A stretch of 64,000 bases of DNA from Candidatus Solincola daggyaiensis. Lineage in GTDB: Bacteria; Actinomycetota; Geothermincolia; Geothermincolales; RBG-13-55-18. Below, piece after piece: positions 8,601 through 61,970 of the stretch (within the stretch, counting starts at the first letter, position 1; each line of letters begins with the position of its first letter). The notes below the pieces were generated by a model. It had not been told where the DNA came from and did no database searches. It saw nothing but the letters and a program-made list of their open reading frames with translations. A program made the translations under genes and the position numbers. The DNA lies in NCBI GenBank assembly GCA_015711825.1, contig JACVJD010000001.1, positions 333-64,332 of the forward strand, given 5' to 3'.

Positions 8601-9247
8601 GTCTTATAGAGAAAGCCCTCGCCGTACTCGACGACCTCGCCGATGACTACGAGGTGATCGTGGTGGACGACGGCAGCGCGGACTCCTCCGGAGAGGTCAT
8701 AGACCAGTTGGCGGCGTCCTACGAAAAGGTACGCGTGGTAAGGCACGACCGCAACCGCGGTTACGGAGCCGCTCTGCGCAGCGGCATAAGGACCTCCACC
8801 AAGGACTGGGTCTTCTACACCGACAGCGACGGGCAGTACGAGGTGGAGGACCTCCGACTGCTGCACGCCATGAGCGGCGATGCGGACGTGGTCAACGGCT
8901 TCAAGACGGGGCGCAGCGACGCCTGGTATCGCAAGTTTCTGGGGTGGGCCTACAACCGACTGGTTCGCTTCGCCTTCGCCATCCCCATCCGCGACGTGGA
9001 CTGCGATTTCAGGCTCATGCGGGGCGAGCTGGTGCGCAGCCTGGATCTCCGCTCGGAGGGCGGGGCCATCTGCGTGGAGCTGGTCAAGGAATTGCAGGCG
9101 GCGGGGGCGGTGTTCGCGGAGGCGCCCGTGGGACATTATCCGCGCGCGGAGGGCAGGAGCCAGTTCTTCCGCCTCAAAAACCTGCTTGTCATGGCGAGGG
9201 AGATTGCGGCACTATGGTGGAGAATGCAGAGGAAAGGGGTGGTGTGA
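5666..9247 (+). CDS. fusion protein: N-terminal YfhO-like polytopic membrane (GT-C type) glycosyltransferase domain + large periplasmic domain + TM helix + C-terminal GT2 polyprenyl-phosphate sugar transferase (DPM1/GtrB/CsbB/ArnC-like)
   Basis: Residues 1-470 have at least 10 hydrophobic helices with a YfhO-like start (SDIKSYYYPAWRYL...GFPLFADSEMGLFYPVNLL). A TM segment follows near residue 925 (LSLALLVFLFMLS). The C-terminus is FPCYNDSATL...VIVVDDGSADSS...YTDSDGQY...DFRLMRGE, a GT2 DXD fold. Good RBS (aaagga) before the ATG; the antisense frames are R/G/P-rich junk. Confidence 0.75.
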   Translation: MSVTALPPSERDKKRRLWPLAIIALVLAAFFHSMLTLSRVPWISDIKSYYYPAWRYLAHAFRSGGPSLWCSGIYCGFPLFADSEMGLFYPVNLLFFQLPATAGFNYCIILHYLLGGVFTYMYCRRLRLGRSASLFAALPFTLGGFFLAHMVHPNAVATAAWMPLFLYCLERALSEGKPSFHLAAGGVLGLQCLSGFLMIPLMQALLAFFYLLSHSFDEQGDRRRFLLINLAWLILALGLGVCLGMVQNLPSYHLVQNSYRAGGLSEKVAGIGSMPPAQLLGIVLPRLFGRGLAQGGYLGAWTFEETYAYMGVLPILFASAALLRPRRRHAAFFFWMGTVSLLLSLGRYGLLWSALRHLPGFNVLKGSSRFILTFNLSLAVLGGMGFERWRSGEFPSRMARSLSRAWLRVAAAAAALAAIPVLLYRFDVLGFRDLAAAAAKPFLAGIKLPTRRVLDGLVSFFTAPRLDLLLPPVMLALFLLLIRADGEGEYGPSRLKVFIAVGLAVVDVFAFGNFVLKPVPRERADFKPQVIGYLKENAGDARVALAKEPGVDRGEFPLCSNQLLPYGLEDAFGFSTIPPARLDRFLALVNDRPEASAFELLGVGLLYSNLSRVQGTTYDLSDPYPIPGGLGAVSYAFPSRTSGRELRLLVDGSILEPSASGRLCFKLNSIINGRVVKHPVLFLHKDSGPEEYFLAVIDAEQTASFERVRFRSPGHGEGREALEIRVPLPSLGEADELILTTLCDPALEGTRIAAVTAIDKDGRRVPLTAWPSVYCDGKNAVYELPNRLTEAYAAWEVSWSGSWGEAVDRAFREDLGMGEVVLVESEIGPETRKALTALSPPEREPSIEVAESGGDGMALRVRGDGDFILVVSLDFMPGWRATVDGEEAPLFSANGFLTALHMKRGEHVVLLSYRPPGLASGAAVSSLSLALLVFLFMLSRRKEGRAAEPTSLETPVARTAGGSISAFFPCYNDSATLKGLIEKALAVLDDLADDYEVIVVDDGSADSSGEVIDQLAASYEKVRVVRHDRNRGYGAALRSGIRTSTKDWVFYTDSDGQYEVEDLRLLHAMSGDADVVNGFKTGRSDAWYRKFLGWAYNRLVRFAFAIPIRDVDCDFRLMRGELVRSLDLRSEGGAICVELVKELQAAGAVFAEAPVGHYPRAEGRSQFFRLKNLLVMAREIAALWWRMQRKGVV

Positions 9248-52114: not shown

Positions 52115-53668
52115 TTAACCCGTCCCGCAGGAGAGGCCGGAGTTCAGCCGGCGGCAAGCTCCGGCCAGCCGGGAATAGATGCGGCGGAAGACCCTGTATA
52201 GTTCGTCATATACCTCGACCTTGCCAGGGTCCGGCTCGAAAACCCTCCTGATCCGCACCACTTCCCTGATAGCCTTGAAAAAAGGTATGGCGCCCGTCGC
52301 CACCGCCGCGGCAAGGGCGCAGCCCATGGCCCCCGCCTCCCGGGGATTGCTCACCGCCTCTATCCGCCTGCCGATGATGTCCGCCACTATCTGCATCCAT
52401 ACGTCGCTGGCTGCACCGCCCCCAATGGCCCGCAGGGTTTCGCAGGGATATCTCGCCGAGGCGGCGATATCCGTAAGCCACCTGAGATTAAAGGCGACTC
52501 CCTCGTAAACCGCCCTCAACATGTGCTCCCAACCGTGCCTGATCCCCAGGTTGACGAAGGCGGCGCGGACCATGGTATCGGGCACCGGCGCCCTTTCCCC
52601 GAACATCCAGGGAGTGAAGAGCAGGCGTCCCGCGCCCGGCTCCACCTCCGCCGCAACGGCATCGAGGCGGCGGAAATACTCCGCTCCTCCCACGTCGCCA
52701 TCGCGAGGCATGGCAACGGCCATCTCCCTGGCAAACCATTCCAGGCAAACCCCCGCCGTCTCCGACTCCCCGATGAGCAGGAACATCTCGGGGTCAGGCG
52801 AGACCACCGTGGCTATGCCGTTCTTTCCCAGGTTGACCTTTTTCCGTACCGAAAGGCAAAGCCAGCTCGAGGTACCGAGGTTGATGTGGCCATCTCCATC
52901 CCTCAGCGCTCCCGAGCCCGTGGCCGCAGCCGGGATGTCCGCCATTCCCGCTATGACCGGCGTGCCGGGAAGCAGCCCCATTTCCTCCGCTGCGTCCTGC
53001 TTAAGGCCGCCCACCACCTCTATGCTTGAACGAAGGGGCGGCATCTTCTCGAGGTCCAGGCCAAGGACCGTGGCGTAAAGACCGGACCATTCCCGCTTGC
53101 GCGGGTTGAGAATGCCCGTTCCTCCCGCTCCGGTATGGTCCATGACCAAGCGTCCGGTGGCGCGTCCCACCAGGAAACCCGTGGCGTCAAGGAAACAGCG
53201 GGTGCGCTTGTATAGCTCGGGCTCGTTCTCCTTCAACCACGCCAGCTTGCATACCACATCCTTGCCGGAGGGCGCCGCCCCTGCCAGGCGTGTTATGGCT
53301 TTCCTGCCCCCGAAGCGACGGATTATGGATGCGGCCTGCTTCTCGGCGCGGTTGTCCAGCCAGATGATCGCCGGCCGTAGGGGACAGGCGGCCGCGTCCA
53401 CGGGCACTACCCCAAGCATCTGCCCCGCGAAACCCACGCCCGCCACCTTAGCCGGATCAACGGCGCATTCCAGCAGCATCCCGCGCGTGCAGGCGCATAC
53501 CGCCTTCCACCAGTCCTGCGCATCCTGCTCCGCCCATCCGAGTCGGGGATGGTTTAAAGGGTAGGGATGAAACGCCGATGCTATGAGCTCGCCTTCGCCG
53601 GAGACGAGGACGCTTTTGCACCCTCCGGTACCGATATCGAACCCGACGAAATATCCCTGCATCAGCAT
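52115..53668 (-). CDS. FGGY-family carbohydrate kinase (xylulokinase/glycerol kinase-like)
   Basis: YFVGFDIGTGGCKSVLV...WLDNRA...; 517 aa two-domain actin-fold kinase. Confidence 0.8.
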   Translation of the reverse strand: MLMQGYFVGFDIGTGGCKSVLVSGEGELIASAFHPYPLNHPRLGWAEQDAQDWWKAVCACTRGMLLECAVDPAKVAGVGFAGQMLGVVPVDAAACPLRPAIIWLDNRAEKQAASIIRRFGGRKAITRLAGAAPSGKDVVCKLAWLKENEPELYKRTRCFLDATGFLVGRATGRLVMDHTGAGGTGILNPRKREWSGLYATVLGLDLEKMPPLRSSIEVVGGLKQDAAEEMGLLPGTPVIAGMADIPAAATGSGALRDGDGHINLGTSSWLCLSVRKKVNLGKNGIATVVSPDPEMFLLIGESETAGVCLEWFAREMAVAMPRDGDVGGAEYFRRLDAVAAEVEPGAGRLLFTPWMFGERAPVPDTMVRAAFVNLGIRHGWEHMLRAVYEGVAFNLRWLTDIAASARYPCETLRAIGGGAASDVWMQIVADIIGRRIEAVSNPREAGAMGCALAAAVATGAIPFFKAIREVVRIRRVFEPDPGKVEVYDELYRVFRRIYSRLAGACRRLNSGLSCGTG

Positions 53669-53822
53669 CGCCTTTCCCCGCTAGGCCGTCAACCCATTTT
53701 AAACCTTTGCGCCGGCAATGCCGCCTCTGAAAAGCGACCGGGGCGGGACGCCCACGTCCCGCCCCGGCTGGGTTCGCCCTTGCGAGGTCGCCCTATCGGG
53801 TCTTTCGCCCCGCTCAGGAGGG

Positions 53823-54398
53823 TTACATCATCAGGTTGCCCAGGGACATGGCGAAGGGCATGTCCCCCTCTATCTTGAGCTTGCCGGTCATGAAAGCGGT
53901 GGGGCCGGCGAGCTCCCCCTTCTGCATGAGGGCCCAGTCCTCGAGGCCTATCTTGAAGGTCACTTCGGGAGAAGAGGCTCCGTTGAAGACCACCTTCAGA
54001 GGCACGGTGGAGCCGTCGGGCATGCCCAGTTCCACGTTCATGGTGCCCTTGGTGGAATTCAGGGTGTCATAACGCTTGCGGTTGGCGTTCTGTCCCATGT
54101 CCGTAAACATATCCATGGCGCCTTCCATCTTGCCGGTCACCGCCTTGCGCCAGGTATCCTCGTCTATCTCCACCTTGATCATGGGGCTGTCGAGGGAACC
54201 CTCCTTTACCTCCAGATCCTTAGCGTCCTTGACGGTAATGCCGTACACGTAGTTCTGGTCTCCCTTGATGTCGAACTCCACCGTGAAGACCGTGCCCTCC
54301 ATGCCCGTGATGCTGGTCCCGGAGAGTTGCTCCTCGACCATCTTGGGCACCACTTCCTCGAAGTACTCTTTCACGCTGATGTTCTCGCTGACTTCCAT
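53823..54398 (-). CDS. SCP2 (sterol carrier protein-2-like) domain protein
   Basis: C-terminal GELAGPTAFMTGKLKIEGDMPFAMSLGNLM is typical SCP2; start moved to internal ATG (MEVSENIS) preceded by perfect RBS AGGAGG+5 nt; ORF-track start is a GTG 13 codons upstream. Confidence 0.65.
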   Translation of the reverse strand: MEVSENISVKEYFEEVVPKMVEEQLSGTSITGMEGTVFTVEFDIKGDQNYVYGITVKDAKDLEVKEGSLDSPMIKVEIDEDTWRKAVTGKMEGAMDMFTDMGQNANRKRYDTLNSTKGTMNVELGMPDGSTVPLKVVFNGASSPEVTFKIGLEDWALMQKGELAGPTAFMTGKLKIEGDMPFAMSLGNLMM

Positions 54399-54480
54399 TC
54401 TTACCTCCTTCTCCGGCTGCTCTCTGCTCTTTTCCACCTCAGTTCCGCTTATGCCCCCTGGCTTTCCTTAGGGGAAACGG

Positions 54481-54526
54481 GTGCGGAGCCTTTATGGTAC
54501 TGACATGTCATTACTATAATTATATG
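54481..54526. promoter_or_regulatory. nested palindromes in AT-rich intergenic island: 9-bp inverted repeat TTTATGGTA...TACCATAAA enclosing the perfect 10-bp palindrome TGACATGTCA and a TATAAT box (candidate divergent promoter/operator)
   Basis: read directly; about 100 nt upstream of the SCP2 gene start (minus strand) and about 500 nt upstream of the 55011 gene (plus strand). Confidence 0.45.
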
Positions 54527-55010
54527 CTACCATAAAGTCAACCATATAAACGAACGAATTACGGGGATTTTTCCGTTTGTGCGGAGGAGCGGTGTGGATA
54601 AAGCCGGCGGAGGACAAATGAAAAAGGGCGATGTGAAAATTTTTTTCAATTTGTGGGGAGGAACGGCATGGGCGGCGTTCATCACCGCACCCTCACGCCG
54701 ATCTCCTCATCCCCCTTGCCGCCGAGCACAGGAGCGTCAGGGGCGCTGTTTATCACCACATAACGGGATTATGCGGAAGAGAAAGAACATGAGGCACATG
54801 CGGCTGTTAACCCGGGCTTTCCGTACTTCGTATAGGCGATAGCAAAAGGAGTAATATATATTCTGATCTTGCGACGATATCGACAACGGCGGTCGCCGGA
54901 GATGGGTCAAGGGCTTTACGAACATTTCGCCCGGAGACCATGAAACGGCTGCTGAACGCAGACACAACATAAGAGTAAGAAACGCAGTAAACGAGGAGTG
55001 AGGCATAGCC

Positions 55011-56459
55011 ATGGACCAGAGATTGAAAAACCTTGATTTCGCGTTCAACCCCCGCTCCATAGCCTTCATCGGCGCCACGGAAAGCATCCGCAAGTGGGGT
55101 TTCCTCATCTTGAACAACCTGCTCACGGGGGGATATGAAGGAGAGGTCTTTCCGGTGAACCCCAATCGCGACACCATACTAGGGCTGCGCGCCTATGCGT
55201 CGGTGCGCGATATCCCCGGGGACATCGACCTAGCGGTGTTCACGGTGCCTGCACGCCAGGTCTTGAGCTCCCTCGAGGAATGCGTCCATAAAGGAGTGAA
55301 GGCGGGGCTGGTGATCACGGCTGGGTTCAAGGAGCTCGGTGAGGAGGGCGCCAGGATGGAGACCGAGATGGTGAGAATGGCGCGAGATGCGGGCATGGTC
55401 CTCGTCGGGCCTAATTGCCAGGGCATCTGCTGCCCCAAGAACCGCCTCTATCCCTGGATGCCCATACTCTTCCATCCCGCACCGGGAAAGATAGGCTACG
55501 TCGCACAGAGCGGCAACATCCTCAACATGCTTATCGGGCATGCAGTGAACGCGGGCCTGGGGATCTCTAAGGCGGTTTCCAGTGGAAACGAGGCCGACAT
55601 ATCCACCGAGGAATATTACGCTTACCTCGCGGAGGACCCCGACACCGAGGTCATCGTGTCCTACATCGAGGGCATCCCCGACGGCCGCCGCTTCCTGGAG
55701 TACGCGCGCTCCGTCACCAGGAGCAAGCCCATCGTGGCGCTCAAGGGCGGCAGGACCCGATCGGGGATATCCGCGGCGAGGTCCCATACCGGCGCCATGG
55801 CCGTGAGGGAGAAGCTGTTCGAGGCAGCCTGCCGCCAGGCCGGCATCACGCTCACATACTCTATAGAGGAGGCGGGGGTTACCGCGGCGGCCTTCGTCAA
55901 CCGTCCCCTGCCCCGCGGCAAGCGCGTGGGCATCATCACCGGCGGAGGGGGCCTGGGGGTCATCGCATGCGACTTCTGCACCGAGATCGGCCTGGAGGTG
56001 GCCACGCTTTCAGGAGAAACCTTGAGCAAGCTCGAGGAGTTGCTTCCCGACTGGTGGGTGCCCGGAAACCCGGTGGACCTGGTAGCGGGTCTCGACTTCA
56101 CCATCCTCAAGCCGGTGATCGAGATCCTCATGAAGAGCGGTGAGGTCGATGCGGTTATGTTCCTATGGATAGGGGCCCCCCGCCGCAAGGGAGAGGCCGA
56201 GGCGTCGCAGAGCGAGCGGGGTATGGACATCTCCGCGGTCTGGAACGTGATGGACCAGCATTTTATGGGCTTCTACGGAGAGCTGAACACGCTCATGCAC
56301 GAGCTGCAGGTACCCTTGTATATCGCCACCAGCATCGAGATGCAGGACACGCCGGGCAGGGATGGATGCAATCCCATCGTTTTCCGCGACGTGGAATCCG
56401 CCTGCCGCGCCGTCAGCGCCATGGCCGGTTACCGCTCCTATCTCGACTCCCGCGGCTGA
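55011..56459 (+). CDS. CoA-binding protein, ADP-forming acyl-CoA synthetase (NDP-forming) alpha-subunit-like
   Basis: SIAFIGATESIRKWGFLILNNLL (CoA-binding Rossmann)...VLVGPNCQGICCP (succinyl-CoA synthetase-like flavodoxin domain); RBS gaggag upstream. Confidence 0.65.
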   Translation: MDQRLKNLDFAFNPRSIAFIGATESIRKWGFLILNNLLTGGYEGEVFPVNPNRDTILGLRAYASVRDIPGDIDLAVFTVPARQVLSSLEECVHKGVKAGLVITAGFKELGEEGARMETEMVRMARDAGMVLVGPNCQGICCPKNRLYPWMPILFHPAPGKIGYVAQSGNILNMLIGHAVNAGLGISKAVSSGNEADISTEEYYAYLAEDPDTEVIVSYIEGIPDGRRFLEYARSVTRSKPIVALKGGRTRSGISAARSHTGAMAVREKLFEAACRQAGITLTYSIEEAGVTAAAFVNRPLPRGKRVGIITGGGGLGVIACDFCTEIGLEVATLSGETLSKLEELLPDWWVPGNPVDLVAGLDFTILKPVIEILMKSGEVDAVMFLWIGAPRRKGEAEASQSERGMDISAVWNVMDQHFMGFYGELNTLMHELQVPLYIATSIEMQDTPGRDGCNPIVFRDVESACRAVSAMAGYRSYLDSRG

Positions 56460-56900
56460 GGCGGGCTTTGCTGCTGGTTATAGAGTCGAGTTTCCGTCAC
56501 CATGTTGCTGCTCATCATGTAGAGGTTACTCGCCTCTATGCCCAAGGCCCATATATACTACAGCAGGCGCTTCGGCACCCTGATGTTTACGGGGCAACAG
56601 CGTCGCCGACTCAAGCTGGTGAGTACGCCCTCCCCTTGATGGAGGTTCATAGCCAGCTTGAAGGCCGCGCTACGCTGTGTCCTCCATTGCATGGTGCCGC
56701 GTCAAAAATGCGCTCAAGCCTTCGCGCCCAAGAGGCTGCGGCATGCCTCGGTGTAAGTCGCCGGCAGTGTAGCCTAAAGCCTGCGCGCCTATGATAGGAC
56801 GGGAGCGGGGAGGCCATCGCATGCCGGAGATATCTGAAGCAGCCGGCGATTCTGACCGCGTGATCGAGGCCGGATAAGAGCGCGCCGCGATAATGTAGAG

Positions 56901-57782
56901 GTGAAGGCGATGCGAAAAGTACGGGCTCTCATTTCACGGGAGAGACAGGCGGAGCTTGCCCTCATCGCCGTTACCGTGGTATGGGGGCTCACCTTCTCCC
57001 TGGTAAAGCGGAGCCTGGAGGAGGTCTCGCCTTTCGTCTTCATGGCTTATCGCTTCGCGTTGGCCTTCCTGGTGATGCTGGCCGTATCCGTGCGCAGGTT
57101 GAGAGACCTGGACCGGGGAACGCTCGCGGCCGGGCTTCTGCTCGGGATTTTTCTCTACGGCGCCTACTCCCTGCAGACCATAGGACTTAAATACACCTCG
57201 GCCGGTAACGCGGGCTTTATCACCGGGCTTTTCGTGGTATTCGTTCCCATACTATCCGTCGTTTTGCTGCGTAAACGCCCGGGGGTACGTTCCATCGTAT
57301 CCGTGTCCCTGGCCACCGTCGGGCTTGCCCTCCTATCTCTGCAGCCTGGACAGGGCATCAACCTCGGGGACGCCTTGGTCCTGGGATGCGCCTTCACCTA
57401 CTCCCTGCACATCATCTGCATGGACCGCTTCGTACAGCGCCACGATTTGGTGCTACTCACCCTGGTGCAGATGGGGGTGGTGGCCATCCTTCACACCGTG
57501 TCAGGGCTGTTTTTCGAGGGCTTCACCTTCCCCACCGCTTCGTTCGTGTGGATGACCATCGCCGTATGCGGCATCCTCGCCTCCGCCGTGGCTTTCTTCG
57601 TGCAGGCCTGGGCCCAGAGGGCGCTCTCACCGGTGCGCACGTCGGTGGTTTTGATCATGGAGCCGGTGTTCTCCGTCCTCTTCGGTATCCTCCTGCTTGC
57701 AGAGAGGCTATCCTGGCGCGGGTGGTTGGGCTGCGCGATCATGCTCGCCGCCATGCTCATCACGGAGATAAGACCGGAATAG
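56901..57782 (+). CDS. EamA/DMT-superfamily transporter
   Basis: 10 TM, two EamA repeats. Confidence 0.8.
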   Translation: MKAMRKVRALISRERQAELALIAVTVVWGLTFSLVKRSLEEVSPFVFMAYRFALAFLVMLAVSVRRLRDLDRGTLAAGLLLGIFLYGAYSLQTIGLKYTSAGNAGFITGLFVVFVPILSVVLLRKRPGVRSIVSVSLATVGLALLSLQPGQGINLGDALVLGCAFTYSLHIICMDRFVQRHDLVLLTLVQMGVVAILHTVSGLFFEGFTFPTASFVWMTIAVCGILASAVAFFVQAWAQRALSPVRTSVVLIMEPVFSVLFGILLLAERLSWRGWLGCAIMLAAMLITEIRPE

Positions 57783-57908
57783 GGGTCAGGTCTTGCATCT
57801 AGCCTGCCATATTATGGTATCATATTATATTGTCGCTGGCAGGAGGCCACGTCTATCTTAAAATAATGTTGAGATACCGCGGTATGCAAAATACAAGACC
57901 TGACCCCA
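57749..57908. repeat. direct repeat copy 1: 34 nt of eamA 3' end + ~125-bp AT-rich MITE-like element with terminal inverted repeats GTCAGGTCTTGCAT / ATGCAA..CAAGACCTGAC
   Basis: aligns with 60711-60870; ends conserved, centre diverged; internal 12-bp palindrome ATACCGCGGTAT and TGGTATCAT extended -10-like box. Confidence 0.8.
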
Positions 57909-58667
57909 TCAGAGGATTTTGGAGAAGAAGTCGATGGCGCGGGGGCTTTGCGGGTTGGTAAATATTGCCTCTGGTTGGCCCTCCTCCACGATGTTGCCGT
58001 CGTCCATGAAGATGAGGCGGTCCCCTACCTCTTTGGCGAAGCCCATCTCATGGGTCACCACCATCATGGTCATGCCCTCGCGGGCCAGGTCCTTCATCAC
58101 GTCCAGGACCTCCTTGACCAGCTCGGGGTCGAGGGCCGAGGTCACCTCGTCGAAGAGCATAAGGTCGGGATCCATGGCCAAGGCACGCGCGATGGCCACC
58201 CTCTGCTGCTGCCCGCCGGAGAGGTGGGCCGGGTAGGCCGAGGCCTTTTCCTTCAGCCCTACCCTCTCCAGCAGGCGGAGGGCCTTATCCTCCGCCTCCG
58301 CAGCGTCCATCTTCCTGACCTTAATGGGGGCGAGGGTGACGTTGCGCAGGGTGGTGAGGTGGGGAAAGAGGTTGAAGCTCTGGAAGACGATCCCCACTCT
58401 CTGCCGCATGGCGTTTATGTCCACCTTGTGGTCGGTGATGTCCACGCCCTCGATATATATATGACCGCTGGTGGCATGCTCGAGCCCGTTCACGCAGCGC
58501 AGCATGGTGCTCTTGCCGGAACCGCTGGGTCCCACGATCACCAGCACCTCCGAGGGCCTCACCTTGAGGTTGACCCCCTTGAGCACCTCATGGAAACCGA
58601 ACCGCTTGTGGAGATCGACGATCTCCACCATGTATTCTGCGCTCAAGCGCCCCTCCCGGGATCCCAT
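57909..58667 (-). CDS. polar amino acid ABC transporter ATP-binding protein (GlnQ/HisP-like)
   Basis: Walker [25 protein letters not shown], Walker [13 protein letters not shown]; true start may be the internal ATG at 58631. Confidence 0.9.
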
Positions 58668-58830
58668 CCTCGTCCTGCCGATACCGTTTTCTCAAGACCA
58701 TATTAACCCATATCGCGCCCCGGGCACGAAAGTCGTCCCGCGCTCGGACGCGCGCAAGTTATGCCTTTACTGAGAGCCCTCCCTCATCTTGCGGCCAAAC
58801 CCCCGGTCCAGGGCACACGCCTCCCCAGCC

Positions 58831-59610
58831 TCAATCCTTCATGGAGAGTCGGGTGGTCATGTACTGTACCAGCCTCATCAAGGGAAGGGTGATGATGAGG
58901 TAGCATAGGGCCGCGCCCATGAGAGGGGTAACGCTGGCGTATTTCCCCATCATCTCCCTGCCGCGGAAAAAGACCTCCGCCAGCCCGATGGTGGCTACCA
59001 GGGCGGTGTCCTTGAGCAACGCTATGAACTCGTTGGAGAGCGGCGGGATGACGTTTCTTATCGCCTGGGGCAGGATGATGTAGCGCATAGCCTTCAGGTA
59101 TCCCATCCCAAGGGATCTTGCCGCCTCCATCTGCCCCTTGTGTATGGACTCTATGCCGGCGCGGAATATCTCCGCCTCATACGCCGCGTAGCAGATGGTG
59201 AGGGCGATGACCCCCGCAACGAACTGGCTTAGGTTGAGCCCCATGTAAGCAAGGCCGAAATAGACGATGAAGATCTGCAGCAGAAGCGGCATCCCCCTTA
59301 TGACGTCGATATACACTGCGGCAACGAAACGGAACGGCTTGACCCTGGATATCCTCACCAGGGCCACCATTAGGCCGGCGGCCAGTATGCAGATCTCCGA
59401 GATCACGGCGAGTCTTATGGTCACCCAGAGGCCTCTCGCCACATACGGCATGGTCTTCTTGAAGATCTGCCAGTTAAAGAACTCGTCCACGAACTTCTTG
59501 CCGGCCTCGAACCTGGTGAAGAAAACCGCCAGGAAGACGACCAGCGCCACAGCCGCCAAGATGCCGACCGTCCATAATATGACCTTTAGCCTTCCGTTTA
59601 TCCCCGACAC
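58831..59610 (-). CDS. polar amino acid ABC transporter permease (HisMQ family)
   Basis: EAARSLGMGYLKAMRYIILPQA EAA-loop motif. Confidence 0.85.
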   Translation of the reverse strand: MSGINGRLKVILWTVGILAAVALVVFLAVFFTRFEAGKKFVDEFFNWQIFKKTMPYVARGLWVTIRLAVISEICILAAGLMVALVRISRVKPFRFVAAVYIDVIRGMPLLLQIFIVYFGLAYMGLNLSQFVAGVIALTICYAAYEAEIFRAGIESIHKGQMEAARSLGMGYLKAMRYIILPQAIRNVIPPLSNEFIALLKDTALVATIGLAEVFFRGREMMGKYASVTPLMGAALCYLIITLPLMRLVQYMTTRLSMKD

Positions 59611-59696
59611 CTCCTTTCAAGGCAAAAGGCCCGCACGCCTTCGCGCGCGGGCCACAAAACTGGGCATCAAGACATGGTGGGGTTCGGCGCTCTTTT

Positions 59697-60509
59697 CTAT
59701 TTCTCCCCGAACCACTTCTCGAAGATCTTGTCGTAGCTGCCGTCTTTTTTCATCTCCGCCAGCGCTTTATCGATGGCCTTCTTGAGCTGGTCGTTGCCCT
59801 TGCGGATGCCGATGCCGTACTGCTCGTCGGTCTTGATGGTGGCCACCACCTCGGTCTGGCCGCGCATCTTGCTCATGTAGGCGTTGACAGGGTAGTCGTT
59901 GAGGATGGCGTCGATTCTCCCCAGCTCCAGCTCCTGGAAGGCGAGGATGATGGTATCGTACTTGCGGATCTCCTTGATGCCCGGGATCTTCTCCGCGGTG
60001 AACTGGCCGGTGGTATCTACCTGGACCCCCACCACCTTGCCCGCGAGGTCGGCCTCGCCCTTGATCTCCGTATTGCCCTTCTTTACTGCGATGGACTGGT
60101 TGGAGTCGATGTAGGGGTCGCTGAAGTCGATCTCCTCCAGCCGCTCGTCGGTGATGGTCATGGCGGACATGATGATGTCGTACTTGTCGGCCTTCAACCC
60201 CGGGATGATGCCGTCCCATGCGGTGCTTATGATCTCGAGTTCCAGGCCGAGCCGCTTGGCGAGCTCATTGGCGATATCGACATCGAACCCTTCCGGCTTG
60301 CCGTCATCCCCAATGGACTCGAAGGGCGGGTAGGTGGTGTCGCTGCCCATGAGCAGCTTGCCTTTCTGAATGGTGGTGACGGTAGCCTCCTTCTTCTCCT
60401 CCCCTTTCGTCTCCTCTTTCTTCTCGCCGCAACCCGCCGCCATGAGGCCGACTACCAGCGCGGTTGCAAGAGCGAGTACCAACAGGGCGATAAATCCTTT
60501 CCTGCGCAT
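59697..60509 (-). CDS. amino acid ABC transporter substrate-binding lipoprotein (SBP family 3)
   Basis: lipobox LMAAGCGEKKE; ...MSAMTITDERLEEIDFSDPY... Confidence 0.85.
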   Translation of the reverse strand: MRRKGFIALLVLALATALVVGLMAAGCGEKKEETKGEEKKEATVTTIQKGKLLMGSDTTYPPFESIGDDGKPEGFDVDIANELAKRLGLELEIISTAWDGIIPGLKADKYDIIMSAMTITDERLEEIDFSDPYIDSNQSIAVKKGNTEIKGEADLAGKVVGVQVDTTGQFTAEKIPGIKEIRKYDTIILAFQELELGRIDAILNDYPVNAYMSKMRGQTEVVATIKTDEQYGIGIRKGNDQLKKAIDKALAEMKKDGSYDKIFEKWFGEK

Positions 60510-60710
60510 CTTCCCTCCTTATCCCGTTCGGCCGGCAACGCTGAAATTATATAGTCAAAGCGTAATTCACACAAATCGCCGCGGGATAAATGAATGCCCG
60601 TAAGCCCTTGAGCAAGCCGCTTGGCTTGTCTTTGCTTCTTCTCCAAGGAGTCGGGGGCAAGAGGATGACGGCGAGTGGATAGCGCTCGGTTAAGCGGGCG
60701 GCAAAGTCAC

Positions 60711-60870
60711 CGCCATGCTCATCACCGAGATAAGACCGGAATAGGAGTCAGGTCTTGCATCTATCCTTCCATATTATGGTATCATACTATATTGCTGCTG
60801 TTAGAAGGCCATGTCTGGCGAAAGGATTTGCGGAGATACCGCGGTATGCAAAATTCAAGACCTGACCCCC
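60711..60870. repeat. direct repeat copy 2 (duplicated eamA 3' end fragment + MITE-like element)
   Basis: aligns with 57749-57908; its right end supplies the last codons and stop of the 60855-61970 gene. Confidence 0.8.
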
Positions 60871-61970
60871 ACCACGCCTACCGTGCGCAGCGGGGGCCGT
60901 AGAGCGACCACGGCGTTCGCCGCTGCCTCGTCGATATCGCTCACGCATACCTCCACCGCCAGCCCCATGGAGGCGGCCATGAGGGACATCTGCGAAAGGG
61001 CGATGGGGAGGTCTATCATCCAGAAGGGCTTCTCGAGCATCTCGTAGAGGTAGGAGCGGTCCGGCTCGGCGGCCCCCACCACGGCGGCCCTCCAATCTCC
61101 GGCGGCGCCGCAGGCAAGAGCCAGTTCCCGCAAAGTCCCCTCCCGCCTGACACCGATGAAATGCCATTGCTGGGTGTTCCCGGCGCTGGGCGCGATGCGC
61201 GCGGCCTCGAAACAGGCATCCAGGGCCAGGTCAAGGGGAACGCCGGGGTCGCTTTGGCGCTTTTTCCCCATCTCTCTCAGCAATCCCGCCACGTCCTGGG
61301 TCTCGGAAGCGGAGAAAGGCTCCCTCGCCAGCTCCCGCACGCTGTAAGGGTTGTCCATGGTCTCGAGATAGGCGATGGCCTCCAGCGGCTTGCGTTTCCG
61401 GGATATCTGCAGGTAGAGCAGGTGGTCCATGTCCGCCGCCCTGACCCGCGGCTTGGGTTTGCCGAAGGGGATCACCGCCGCGACGTAGGTCTCCCTGCCG
61501 AACCCCAACGTCTCCCCCACCTCGCGCTGGTTCAGCCCTCCCACCCAGCAAGTGCCCAGGCCCGCCTCGGTCAGCCAGAGCACCACGTCCTCGGCCGCCA
61601 TAGCAACAAGGGGCAGCTCGCGCGGACGGTCGCCCTTGGCGTCGGCGCGTGGGACCGCCAGCACCAGAAACCCCGCCACGGGGGAGCGGTTCAGCCAGAG
61701 GTTGATCTTTCCCTGTGTCCCTTTATGTATCCTTTTCTTTATCCTCTCCACCCGTCCCGTGTCTGAGACCACCGTGATACCGCCCTCCGCTGCACCCCGG
61801 GTGGAGAGCGCCAGGCTCACCACCTCCCCGAGGGATGCAAAGAACGCCTGGTCGTATTCGCCCGGCAGGTACTTGCGATGGGAGCGGCGGGCGTAGAGGA
61901 CCTCCCACAGTTTCCACGGCGTTTCGGAATAGGAAAGATAGTCCCGGGTCGCGGTTTTGGTCTGCTCCAT
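60855..61970 (-). CDS. tandem nitroreductase-fold protein (SagB/ThcOx-type dehydrogenase-like)
   Basis: two nitroreductase-like halves; second carries APSAGNTQQWHFIGV; first starts ...YARRSHRKYLPGE. Confidence 0.6.
   Translation of the reverse strand: MEQTKTATRDYLSYSETPWKLWEVLYARRSHRKYLPGEYDQAFFASLGEVVSLALSTRGAAEGGITVVSDTGRVERIKKRIHKGTQGKINLWLNRSPVAGFLVLAVPRADAKGDRPRELPLVAMAAEDVVLWLTEAGLGTCWVGGLNQREVGETLGFGRETYVAAVIPFGKPKPRVRAADMDHLLYLQISRKRKPLEAIAYLETMDNPYSVRELAREPFSASETQDVAGLLREMGKKRQSDPGVPLDLALDACFEAARIAPSAGNTQQWHFIGVRREGTLRELALACGAAGDWRAAVVGAAEPDRSYLYEMLEKPFWMIDLPIALSQMSLMAASMGLAVEVCVSDIDEAAANAVVALRPPLRTVGVVGVRS

Follow-up and report, generated by a model that had tools for sequence, protein, structure and literature searches.

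What is controlled by a cluster of perfectly symmetric motifs in the intergenic region (54399-55010) between the gene of an SCP2-domain protein and an acyl-CoA synthetase gene of Candidatus Solincola daggyaiensis? The locus lies in a 64,000-nucleotide (nt) stretch of contig JACVJD010000001.1 (the window, to whose positions all coordinates refer unless a locus is named). A preliminary description had proposed a repressor operator overlapping divergent promoters. Our analysis retains the operator on a promoter, with the palindrome TGACATGTCA as its core, and drops the divergent promoters. Judged by comparison among homologous loci, the site is very probably the promoter and operator of a single-gene SCP2 unit, under a TetR-family repressor encoded elsewhere.

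The promoter is read on the minus strand. The -35 hexamer TTGACT (54536-54541) is followed by a 17-nt spacer (54519-54535), which contains TTATGGTAGCA and a TATAAT, and by the -10 hexamer TATAGT (54513-54518). A consensus promoter scan found TTGACT-17-TATAGT with 10 of 12 matches independently of the alignment described below, and both the 17-nt spacing and the conservation of the hexamers among relatives are those of a promoter for the housekeeping sigma factor (sigma-70/sigma-A type). The -10 hexamer and the operator share two bases, as the GT that closes the hexamer opens the operator. The latter is a palindrome of 18 bp (54497-54514; minus strand GTAATGACATGTCAGTAC, plus strand GTACTGACATGTCATTAC). 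The operator is centered on the 10-bp inner palindrome TGACATGTCA (54501-54510), its downstream half-site is GTCAGTAC, and an imperfect extended palindrome of 28 bp (TTATGGTAcTGACA/TGTCAtTACtATAA, 87% complementary) spans 54492-54519. These lengths belong to the 15-30 bp class of TetR operators, and the palindrome overlaps a conserved core promoter together with its predicted start site. From the promoter geometry, transcription is predicted to begin at 54506 on the minus strand, the A of the palindrome's central ATG and the seventh base after the -10 hexamer; a vestigial mini open reading frame (ORF), ATG TCA GTA CCA TAA (MSVP-stop), begins at this ATG. The predicted 5' untranslated region of SCP2 (54399-54505, minus strand) would be a leader of about 108 nt, conserved only in the ribosome-binding site GGAGG (54404-54408), 5 nt before the SCP2 ATG. 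We found no unusual RNA structure in the predicted 108-nt leader (fold versus shuffles, z = -0.08), and an Rfam scan of 53500-61500 at E <= 1 gave just two chance-level matches, to a miRNA and a snoRNA model, and no known RNA family. The SCP2 gene itself (53823-54398, minus strand) encodes 191 amino acids (aa) with a Pfam SCP2 match at 1.9e-16. It is followed by a strong intrinsic terminator (53730-53767, minus strand; a 13-bp G+C stem, a 4-nt loop and TTTT) that divides it from an FGGY-family sugar kinase gene; therefore, we take SCP2 to be a single-gene unit.

In the mechanism that we propose, RNA polymerase with the housekeeping sigma factor would use TTGACT (54541-54536), the 17-nt spacer and TATAGT (54518-54513) and start at or near 54506. 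A TetR-family dimer on 54497-54514 would cover the 3' end of the -10 hexamer and the start site and thereby block SCP2 initiation. The repressor, acting from elsewhere in the genome, outside the window, would belong to an uncharacterised TetR subfamily that in relatives heads an operon of tetR and two acyl-CoA dehydrogenase genes. It would repress its own gene through the same palindrome, whose central ATG would serve as its own leaderless start codon, and would be released by a hydrophobic ligand, the likeliest candidate being an acyl-CoA or a related lipid.

The conservation of the site across homologous loci carries the first part of this argument. An SCP2 protein scan with one genome per species yielded 21 loci (numbered from L001), all in metagenome-assembled genomes of Actinomycetota, several of them labelled Geothermincolia or Geothermincolales, with SCP2 protein identities of 55-95% (95% in L001). 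Loci L001-L012 have a common arrangement of the synthetase and SCP2 genes, mostly followed by the sugar kinase and a DUF1638 gene. When the 612-bp intergenic region was compared with the 21 loci by sensitive blastn, 54489-54557 was the sole part that aligned, even in L001. We then used the palindrome centre as the anchor for an alignment of the window with 20 loci, in the orientation of the SCP2 strand. In this alignment TTGAC, the -10 hexamer and the palindrome are invariant between variable flanks, and the spacer is 17-18 nt; the sequence is thus conserved beyond its flanks across species. The -10 hexamer is TATAGT without exception in L001-L012 and TATTAT, TATAAT or TAGAGT in distant loci, always abutting the palindrome, which takes the form (G)TA(A/C)TGAC-NN-GTCAGTA(C). 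The 18-mer GTAATGACATGTCAGTAC is identical in the window and 11 of the 12 syntenic loci, and the form (T)ACTGAC-NN-GTCAGT(A) is found in 20 of the 21 loci, with the half-sites ACTGAC/GTCAGT fixed and the central dinucleotide varying (AT, AC, CG, CT). The core TGAC-NN-GTCA occurs a single time in the 64-kb window and once upstream of SCP2 in 19 of the 21 loci; it is absent from L017. Longer perfect palindromes occur elsewhere (TATTATACTGACATGTCAGTATAATA in L015 and L018, TGTATGGTACTGACATGTCAGTACCATACA in L046), with symmetry reaching 24-30 bp. The inner palindrome is most likely a strongly conserved operator on the SCP2 promoter for a TetR-family repressor.

The more conspicuous symmetries of the locus behave differently in the same comparison. 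The nested motifs first described are indeed present, 10 bases to the right of their reported positions: the window reads GTGCGGAGC at 54481-89 and AATTATATG at 54518-26, and the 9-bp arms TTTATGGTA and TACCATAAA actually lie at 54491-54499 and 54528-54536. The inverted repeat is perfect, as claimed, and its full length is 10 bp. The left arm CTTTATGGTA (54490-54499, plus strand) falls within the 28-bp extended palindrome and overlaps the operator's outer edge (GTAC), the right arm TACCATAAAG (54528-54537, plus strand) lies inside the -35/-10 spacer as the TTATGGTAGCA mentioned above, overlapping the -35 hexamer by 2 nt, and the gap between them is 28 nt. A second 10-bp palindrome, TATAATTATA (54515-54524), is formed by TATAAT on the plus strand (54515-54520) together with TATAAT on the minus strand (54524-54519). 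The outer repeat encloses the inner palindromes, though its centre (54513.5) differs from theirs (54505.5 and 54519.5). When the 612-bp intergenic region was shuffled (first-order), 1.9% of the shuffles contained a perfect 10-bp inverted repeat whose arms were <=40 nt apart, and 0.5% contained such a repeat plus at least two 10-bp palindromes; a count over the whole window gives 13 overlapping 10-bp matches of this type, which amount to eight separate inverted repeats. The outer repeat is locally unusual and statistically not overwhelming by itself.

Across 29 distinct TATAGT-type promoters, the two arms are complementary at 10/10 positions in the window only, at 9/10 in L006 and at 1-8/10 in the others, and no compensating changes between the arms were found among them, so the outer 9/10-bp repeat does not hold up as a part of the design, nor do its arms behave as a functional long-range inverted repeat. 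At the left-arm position, downstream of the operator, relatives read TACC(A/G)nAAgG. The TATAAT on both strands, previously read as a -10 element, fares no better. Relatives have TTTATA, GATTAT and similar sequences at the place of TATAATTATA, and the minus-strand TATAAT at 54524-54519 is replaced by TATATT, CGTGAT, CATCTT or TATCCT; it is also badly placed for a -10 hexamer, being 11 nt from the -35, whereas the neighbouring TATAGT, which lies 17 nt from TTGACT, is the invariant -10. The compared sequences mark the outer repeat and the TATAATTATA palindrome as genome-specific by-products or coincidences, with the left arm presumably belonging to the edge of the extended operator and the right arm to a motif in the spacer that is conserved in its own right. 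The outer repeat could fold into a DNA hairpin (z = -2.4), but we considered and rejected a role for it through RNA or a cruciform, as only its downstream half would be transcribed and its pairing is unconserved in relatives.

This comparison bears directly on the arrangement first proposed, in which one repressor on the nested outer repeat and palindromes controls back-to-back SCP2 and synthetase promoters, and which we consider distinctly unlikely. Besides the perfection and local improbability of the repeat, it can claim a plus-strand promoter-like match, CTGACA-17-TATGCT, at 9 of 12 positions. Moreover, a Fe-S gene and then the synthetase gene diverge from SCP2 in several relatives, so that ancestral bidirectional control is conceivable, and in distant relatives the operator does stand between two outward promoters, of tetR and SCP2 in L013, L015 and L018 and of tetR and the Fe-S gene in L016 and L021. 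Against these points stand the uncompensated arms, the weakness and lack of conservation of the plus-strand hexamers, and the distances: the SCP2 ATG is 92-139 nt downstream of the focal motifs, and the synthetase ATG is 474-521 nt away from them, 474 nt beyond the right arm. Furthermore, none of the 21 homologous loci aligns with the window from 54558 to the synthetase gene, and relatives L002-L010 have a separate conserved promoter-like block, (C/A)TTGTTAAG-N16-GGGTTTAATATAG (TTGTTA..GGGTTTAATATAG), about 95-175 nt upstream of the synthetase ATG, with or without a gene (the Fe-S gene) between the block and SCP2. The presence of this block makes it likely that the synthetase gene has its own promoter, and we find no divergent overlapping promoters sharing one operator, as in tetA/tetR, in the window.

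The spacer motif just mentioned, TTGACT-nn-ATGGTA(A/G)CA, is exact in 15 of the 29 distinct TATAGT-type promoters, and related forms occur in the distant SCP2 loci L013, L015, L017 and L018 and in oxidoreductase promoters. Possible roles are those of a second regulatory site and of a third, degenerate half-site.

The assignment to a TetR-family regulator comes from the linkage of its gene to the palindrome. TetR orthologues adjoin the palindrome in L013, L014, L015, L016, L018 and L021. In L014, the palindrome is followed by the TetR-family gene and then directly by SCP2, forming a tetR-SCP2 operon. In L013, L015 and L018, the palindrome separates SCP2 from a divergently oriented TetR orthologue. 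L016 and L021 have the TetR gene immediately past SCP2 and carry the palindrome a second time, between tetR and a QueG-like Fe-S gene; the context of L021 also includes a thiolase. A metagenome scan for exact matches to GTA[A/C]TGACATGTCAGTAC returned 93 loci, and we counted as regulon genes those that start <=400 bp from the site and point away from it. By this count, 65 loci adjoin a TetR, SCP2, Fe-S, acyl-CoA dehydrogenase, molybdopterin oxidoreductase or acyl-CoA synthetase gene: TetR only in 33, acyl-CoA dehydrogenase in nine, Fe-S gene and SCP2 in eight, acyl-CoA synthetase and SCP2 in six, molybdopterin oxidoreductase in four, SCP2 only in two, SCP2 and TetR in two, and Fe-S gene only in one. 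The reverse comparison, which set out from four TetR homologues and not from the DNA motif, agrees: the nine loci that it reached, with four distinct upstream sequences among them, all have the 18-mer at the gene start, and every one of those that extend past tetR has two acyl-CoA dehydrogenase genes downstream.

Two further sets of loci show how far regulator and site travel together. L118 (CAYWXM010000017.1) and L007 (CAYWXM010000053.1) come from one assembly and have the tetR-type and the SCP2-type site on separate contigs; L007 has a window-type SCP2 site and no TetR nearby. At least one genome of the clade therefore holds the regulator and its target apart. In addition, nine low-GC contigs (L026, L038, L059, L060, L068, L070, L073, L077 and L108; GC 0.31-0.38) have the perfect palindrome GTACTGACATGTCAGTAC together with TetR, an SCP2 homologue (32-35% identity) and acyl-CoA dehydrogenase, L026 having two operator copies. 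The helix-turn-helix region (..SDI(I/V)E.A.IGRGT.Y.YF) is common to the actinobacterial and low-GC TetR proteins that share the operator core. Either old ancestry or horizontal transfer would explain why the regulon module is found across phyla.

Two groups of metagenome matches can be described separately. In L025 (operator at 9077, minus strand), L028, L035 and L079, a near-identical promoter, TTGACTTAATGGTAACAAATAATTATAGTAATGACATGTCAGTACC, precedes a gene for a 794-aa molybdopterin oxidoreductase and not SCP2. In L024 (2225-2490), the 18-mer GTAATGACATGTCAGTAC lies within a repeat of about 125 bp in three tandem copies, with one copy each in L032 and L075; these three contigs have a GC of 0.41-0.45 and no regulon genes, and probably carry an unrelated repeat family.

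The same linkage weighs on a second alternative, for which we see little likelihood, that the operator serves another regulator encoded elsewhere (e.g., of the MarR, GntR or Xre type) and that the TetR genes are mere members of its regulon. Palindromes of TGAC/GTCA half-sites are not unique to TetR proteins, and the window encodes no TetR. However, the site overlaps the start of a TetR gene in 28 distinct loci, tracks the TetR gene through different gene arrangements and across phyla, and is present in all nine loci of the reverse comparison, and no other regulator gene recurs beside it.

The overlap between the operator and the TetR gene start has a feature of its own. In each of these 28 loci, the palindrome's central ATG opens a complete TetR ORF (MSVPKKRMPA...) of about 221-256 aa, and the tetR promoters have a -10 of the form TAnnGT in the same register, ending 6 nt upstream of the start codon, which leaves no room for a leader. 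Three observations indicate that the first codons are translated. First, codons 4-7 vary synonymously (CCA/CCG/CCC, AAA/AAG, AGG/CGG/CGT/CGC). Second, the Met8 at which gene callers place the start is missing from two loci, L053 and L106, which have Leu at this position. Third, database entries for the protein are mostly 213-217 aa, starting at Met8 or later (e.g., L042, L086 and L115-L123), as compared with about 221 aa for the leaderless form. From these we conclude that the regulator mRNA is leaderless and that its start codon coincides with the dyad centre of the regulator's own operator. The ORF in CAYWXM010000017.1, for example, is 220 aa long and starts MSVPKKRMPAQE.

It is highly improbable that no regulator is involved and that a strong promoter with its start-site context merely keeps the symmetry as a relic of a copied leaderless tetR start (ATG TCA GTA CC), because, although SCP2-type sites retain a vestigial MSVP(K) reading that fits descent from a tetR promoter or from a tetR-SCP2 operon (L014, L065, L083), a relic should decay, yet the 18-mer is invariant in non-coding contexts with randomised flanks, the mini-ORFs after the ATG span 4 to >100 codons (including two that read through into SCP2), the dyad symmetry is maintained and reaches 24-30 bp in other lineages, and the half-sites stay fixed while the central dinucleotide varies. 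A more elaborate form of the TetR repressor model, which we hold to be doubtful, would take the SCP2 promoter as a redeployed copy of the regulator's leaderless promoter that keeps the 5'-terminal AUG and the MSVP codons. In an actinobacterium, the AUG would be translated as a leaderless micro-ORF, and ribosome loading on the operator bases at the very 5' end could tune SCP2 expression or mRNA stability; the additional TTATGGTA(A/G)CA in the spacer could serve as a third half-site or bind a second regulator, and might so give the targets a different induction threshold from that of the regulator gene.

As to the identity of the repressor, comparison with known systems places it among ordinary TetR switches without naming it. 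As in TetR/tetO and QacR-IR1, the target promoter has its -10 and start site overlapped by a palindromic operator of 15-30 bp, the gene of the regulator is in many genomes a direct or divergent neighbour with the same site on its own promoter, and the regulator has the Pfam TetR_N helix-turn-helix. Unlike those systems, the regulator is not adjacent to its target in the window, the targets are an SCP2-domain protein and acyl-CoA dehydrogenases with no efflux pump, and the operator's central ATG doubles as the regulator's leaderless start codon. The operator sequence is not known to be related to tetO. The FadR proteins of Bacillus subtilis (YsiA) and Thermus thermophilus are likewise TetR-family proteins that head or adjoin acyl-CoA dehydrogenase genes, and Bacillus-type FadR (NF053878) is the best NCBIfam match of our regulator, making an acyl-CoA ligand the natural guess; one source labels the homologue P0080 'fatty acid metabolism transcriptional regulator'. 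The score of 49.1 bits, compared with a cut-off of 200, does not make it a FadR or an equivalog. Published FadR boxes presumably do not resemble ACTGAC-NN-GTCAGT. Mycobacterial KstR and KstR2 offer a third parallel, as actinobacterial TetR repressors of lipid-catabolic genes with multi-promoter regulons. Their recognition sites are short palindromes around a central dinucleotide, with the motif TnnAACnnGTTnnA for KstR. The half-site here differs from theirs, the NCBIfam KstR model gives 33 bits versus a cut-off of 280, and we saw no sterol-catabolic genes in the gene contexts examined. Leaderless repressor genes with the start codon at the transcription start include lambda cI transcribed from PRM and Tn1721 tetR. 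Here, too, the predicted transcript starts with the regulator ORF, 6 nt past the -10. Unlike in those two genes, the start codon falls exactly on the dyad centre of the operator, which is also reused before leadered targets such as SCP2. The switch is therefore of an ordinary, well-understood TetR operator-promoter kind, and its distinctive detail is the leaderless start codon at the operator centre.

A PDB sequence search with the regulator matched many TetR proteins (best E 2.6e-10), mostly in the N-terminal helix-turn-helix part, and returned no close solved relative. Literature searches gave only unrelated primer-type matches for the motif string, and nothing specific was found for TetR with SCP2, acyl-CoA dehydrogenase and operator, or for Geothermincolia. 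The suggestion of an acyl-CoA or lipid ligand draws on the context of acyl-CoA dehydrogenases, SCP2, thiolase (L021) and synthetase, by analogy with TetR-type FadR.

Several points weigh against a TetR operator on the SCP2 promoter as we describe it. The linked cognate TetR gene is found in relatives and not within the window: tblastn at E <= 50 detected no TetR homologue in the 64 kb, and tblastn of the TetR orthologues at the same threshold gave no pseudogene or remnant in the intergenic region, so that we infer the presence of the regulator elsewhere in this genome. The operator in the window is slightly asymmetric (16 of 18 positions symmetric). Almost a third of the exact metagenome matches (28/93) have no recognisable regulon gene nearby. 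The spacer element ATGGTA(A/G)CA is kept in SCP2- and oxidoreductase-type promoters and not in tetR promoters, and also in the palindrome-less L017, and our model leaves it unexplained. The TetR subfamily reaches no curated family cut-off, and the ligand is a guess from gene context. Lastly, all the organisms involved are uncultivated.

On the other side of the operator, the intergenic region can be divided further. The AT-rich island that had been described is borne out: 54399-55010 has a GC of 0.51 versus 0.63 for the window and contains the window's lowest-GC stretches of 48, 100 and 600 nt, the 48-bp core having a GC of 0.29. The synthetase gene (55011-56459, plus strand) is of the ADP-forming alpha type, with Pfam Succ_CoA_lig and CoA_binding domains; its NCBIfam AcCoA-syn-alpha match falls below the cut-off. 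It probably has its own promoter, as the block in relatives suggests. The window and L001 diverge from that block, and the candidate -10 region in the window, GTAATATATATT (54851-54862, plus strand), is a weak match; its position 160 nt upstream of the ATG is within the 95-173 nt range of the block in L002-L010. Between the two promoter regions lies unconserved, AT-richer filler (54558-54840), at a position that the Fe-S gene occupies in several relatives. An intact QueG-like Fe-S gene of 276 aa stands between the SCP2 promoter and the synthetase gene in L001 (2803-3633), L004, L005, L008 and L010, and L002, L006 and L007 retain fragments (two ends or the 3' end) of this QueG- or reductive-dehalogenase-like gene; tblastn with the Fe-S protein found no remnant in the window. 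The Fe-S gene seems to have been lost repeatedly among relatives. The AT-rich island is best read as a composite of the promoter-operator of SCP2, the promoter region of the synthetase gene and unconstrained DNA of about 280 bp that remained after loss of the Fe-S gene, synteny being the basis for regarding the filler as a leftover of that gene.

The filler also contains degenerate direct repeats (54568-54790) with a spacing of about 71-74 nt, each with a GGAGGA-like stretch; 54568-54597 matches 54642-54671 at 80%, and 54659-54689 matches 54730-54760 at 77%. They are not conserved in relatives and were missed by Tandem Repeats Finder, which reported no repeats in 54300-55100.

The 8-mer TTATGGTA had been noted to recur beyond this locus. 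It has four exact copies in the window compared with 0.28 expected, including the spacer copy at 54528-54535. The copies are not independent, since two are the arms of one repeat and two (57812 and 60774) belong to the copies of one 163-bp repeat. The supposed link to repeats resembling miniature inverted-repeat transposable elements (MITEs) dissolves on this count, as one shared 8-mer is expected in 17-27% of shuffles (focal 61 bp) and no 9-mer is shared. Similarly, among the annotated genes no phosphomannomutase (PMM) gene, upstream of which the motif had been reported, was seen beside an exact copy in a check that was not exhaustive.

The 163-bp element is itself of interest. Its two copies (57745-57907 and 60707-60869) are 85% identical, and each opens with what appear to be the last 11 codons of an EamA transporter gene (..AMLITEIRPE-stop), followed by about 120 bp bounded by the terminal inverted repeats GGGGTCAGGTCTTGCAT ... 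ATGCAAAATACAAGACCTGACCCC. The element could be a MITE, a long hairpin or a duplicated gene end, and the repeat pair was not found in any fetched locus. Elsewhere in the window, TTAGCACTC-N9-GAGTGCTAA at 719-745 is a textbook CIRCE element, the HrcA heat-shock operator, presumably upstream of a chaperone gene.

These results carry a caution for the reading of such loci: the most striking perfect symmetries, namely the outer repeat and the TATAAT palindrome, are unconserved, and the functional element is the inner palindrome with a plain TATAGT. Most public gene calls for the regulator overlook the leaderless start and begin seven codons late, which the analysis corrects. More broadly, the analysis turns an anonymous palindrome into a testable regulon for the uncultivated actinobacterial class Geothermincolia. 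Its parts would be one TetR-family repressor and an 18-20-bp operator of the GGTACTGAC-AT-GTCAGTACC type, and its targets the SCP2-domain protein, two acyl-CoA dehydrogenases, the QueG-like Fe-S protein and, in some genomes, the molybdopterin oxidoreductase. The repressor-operator pair is ready for in vitro characterisation.

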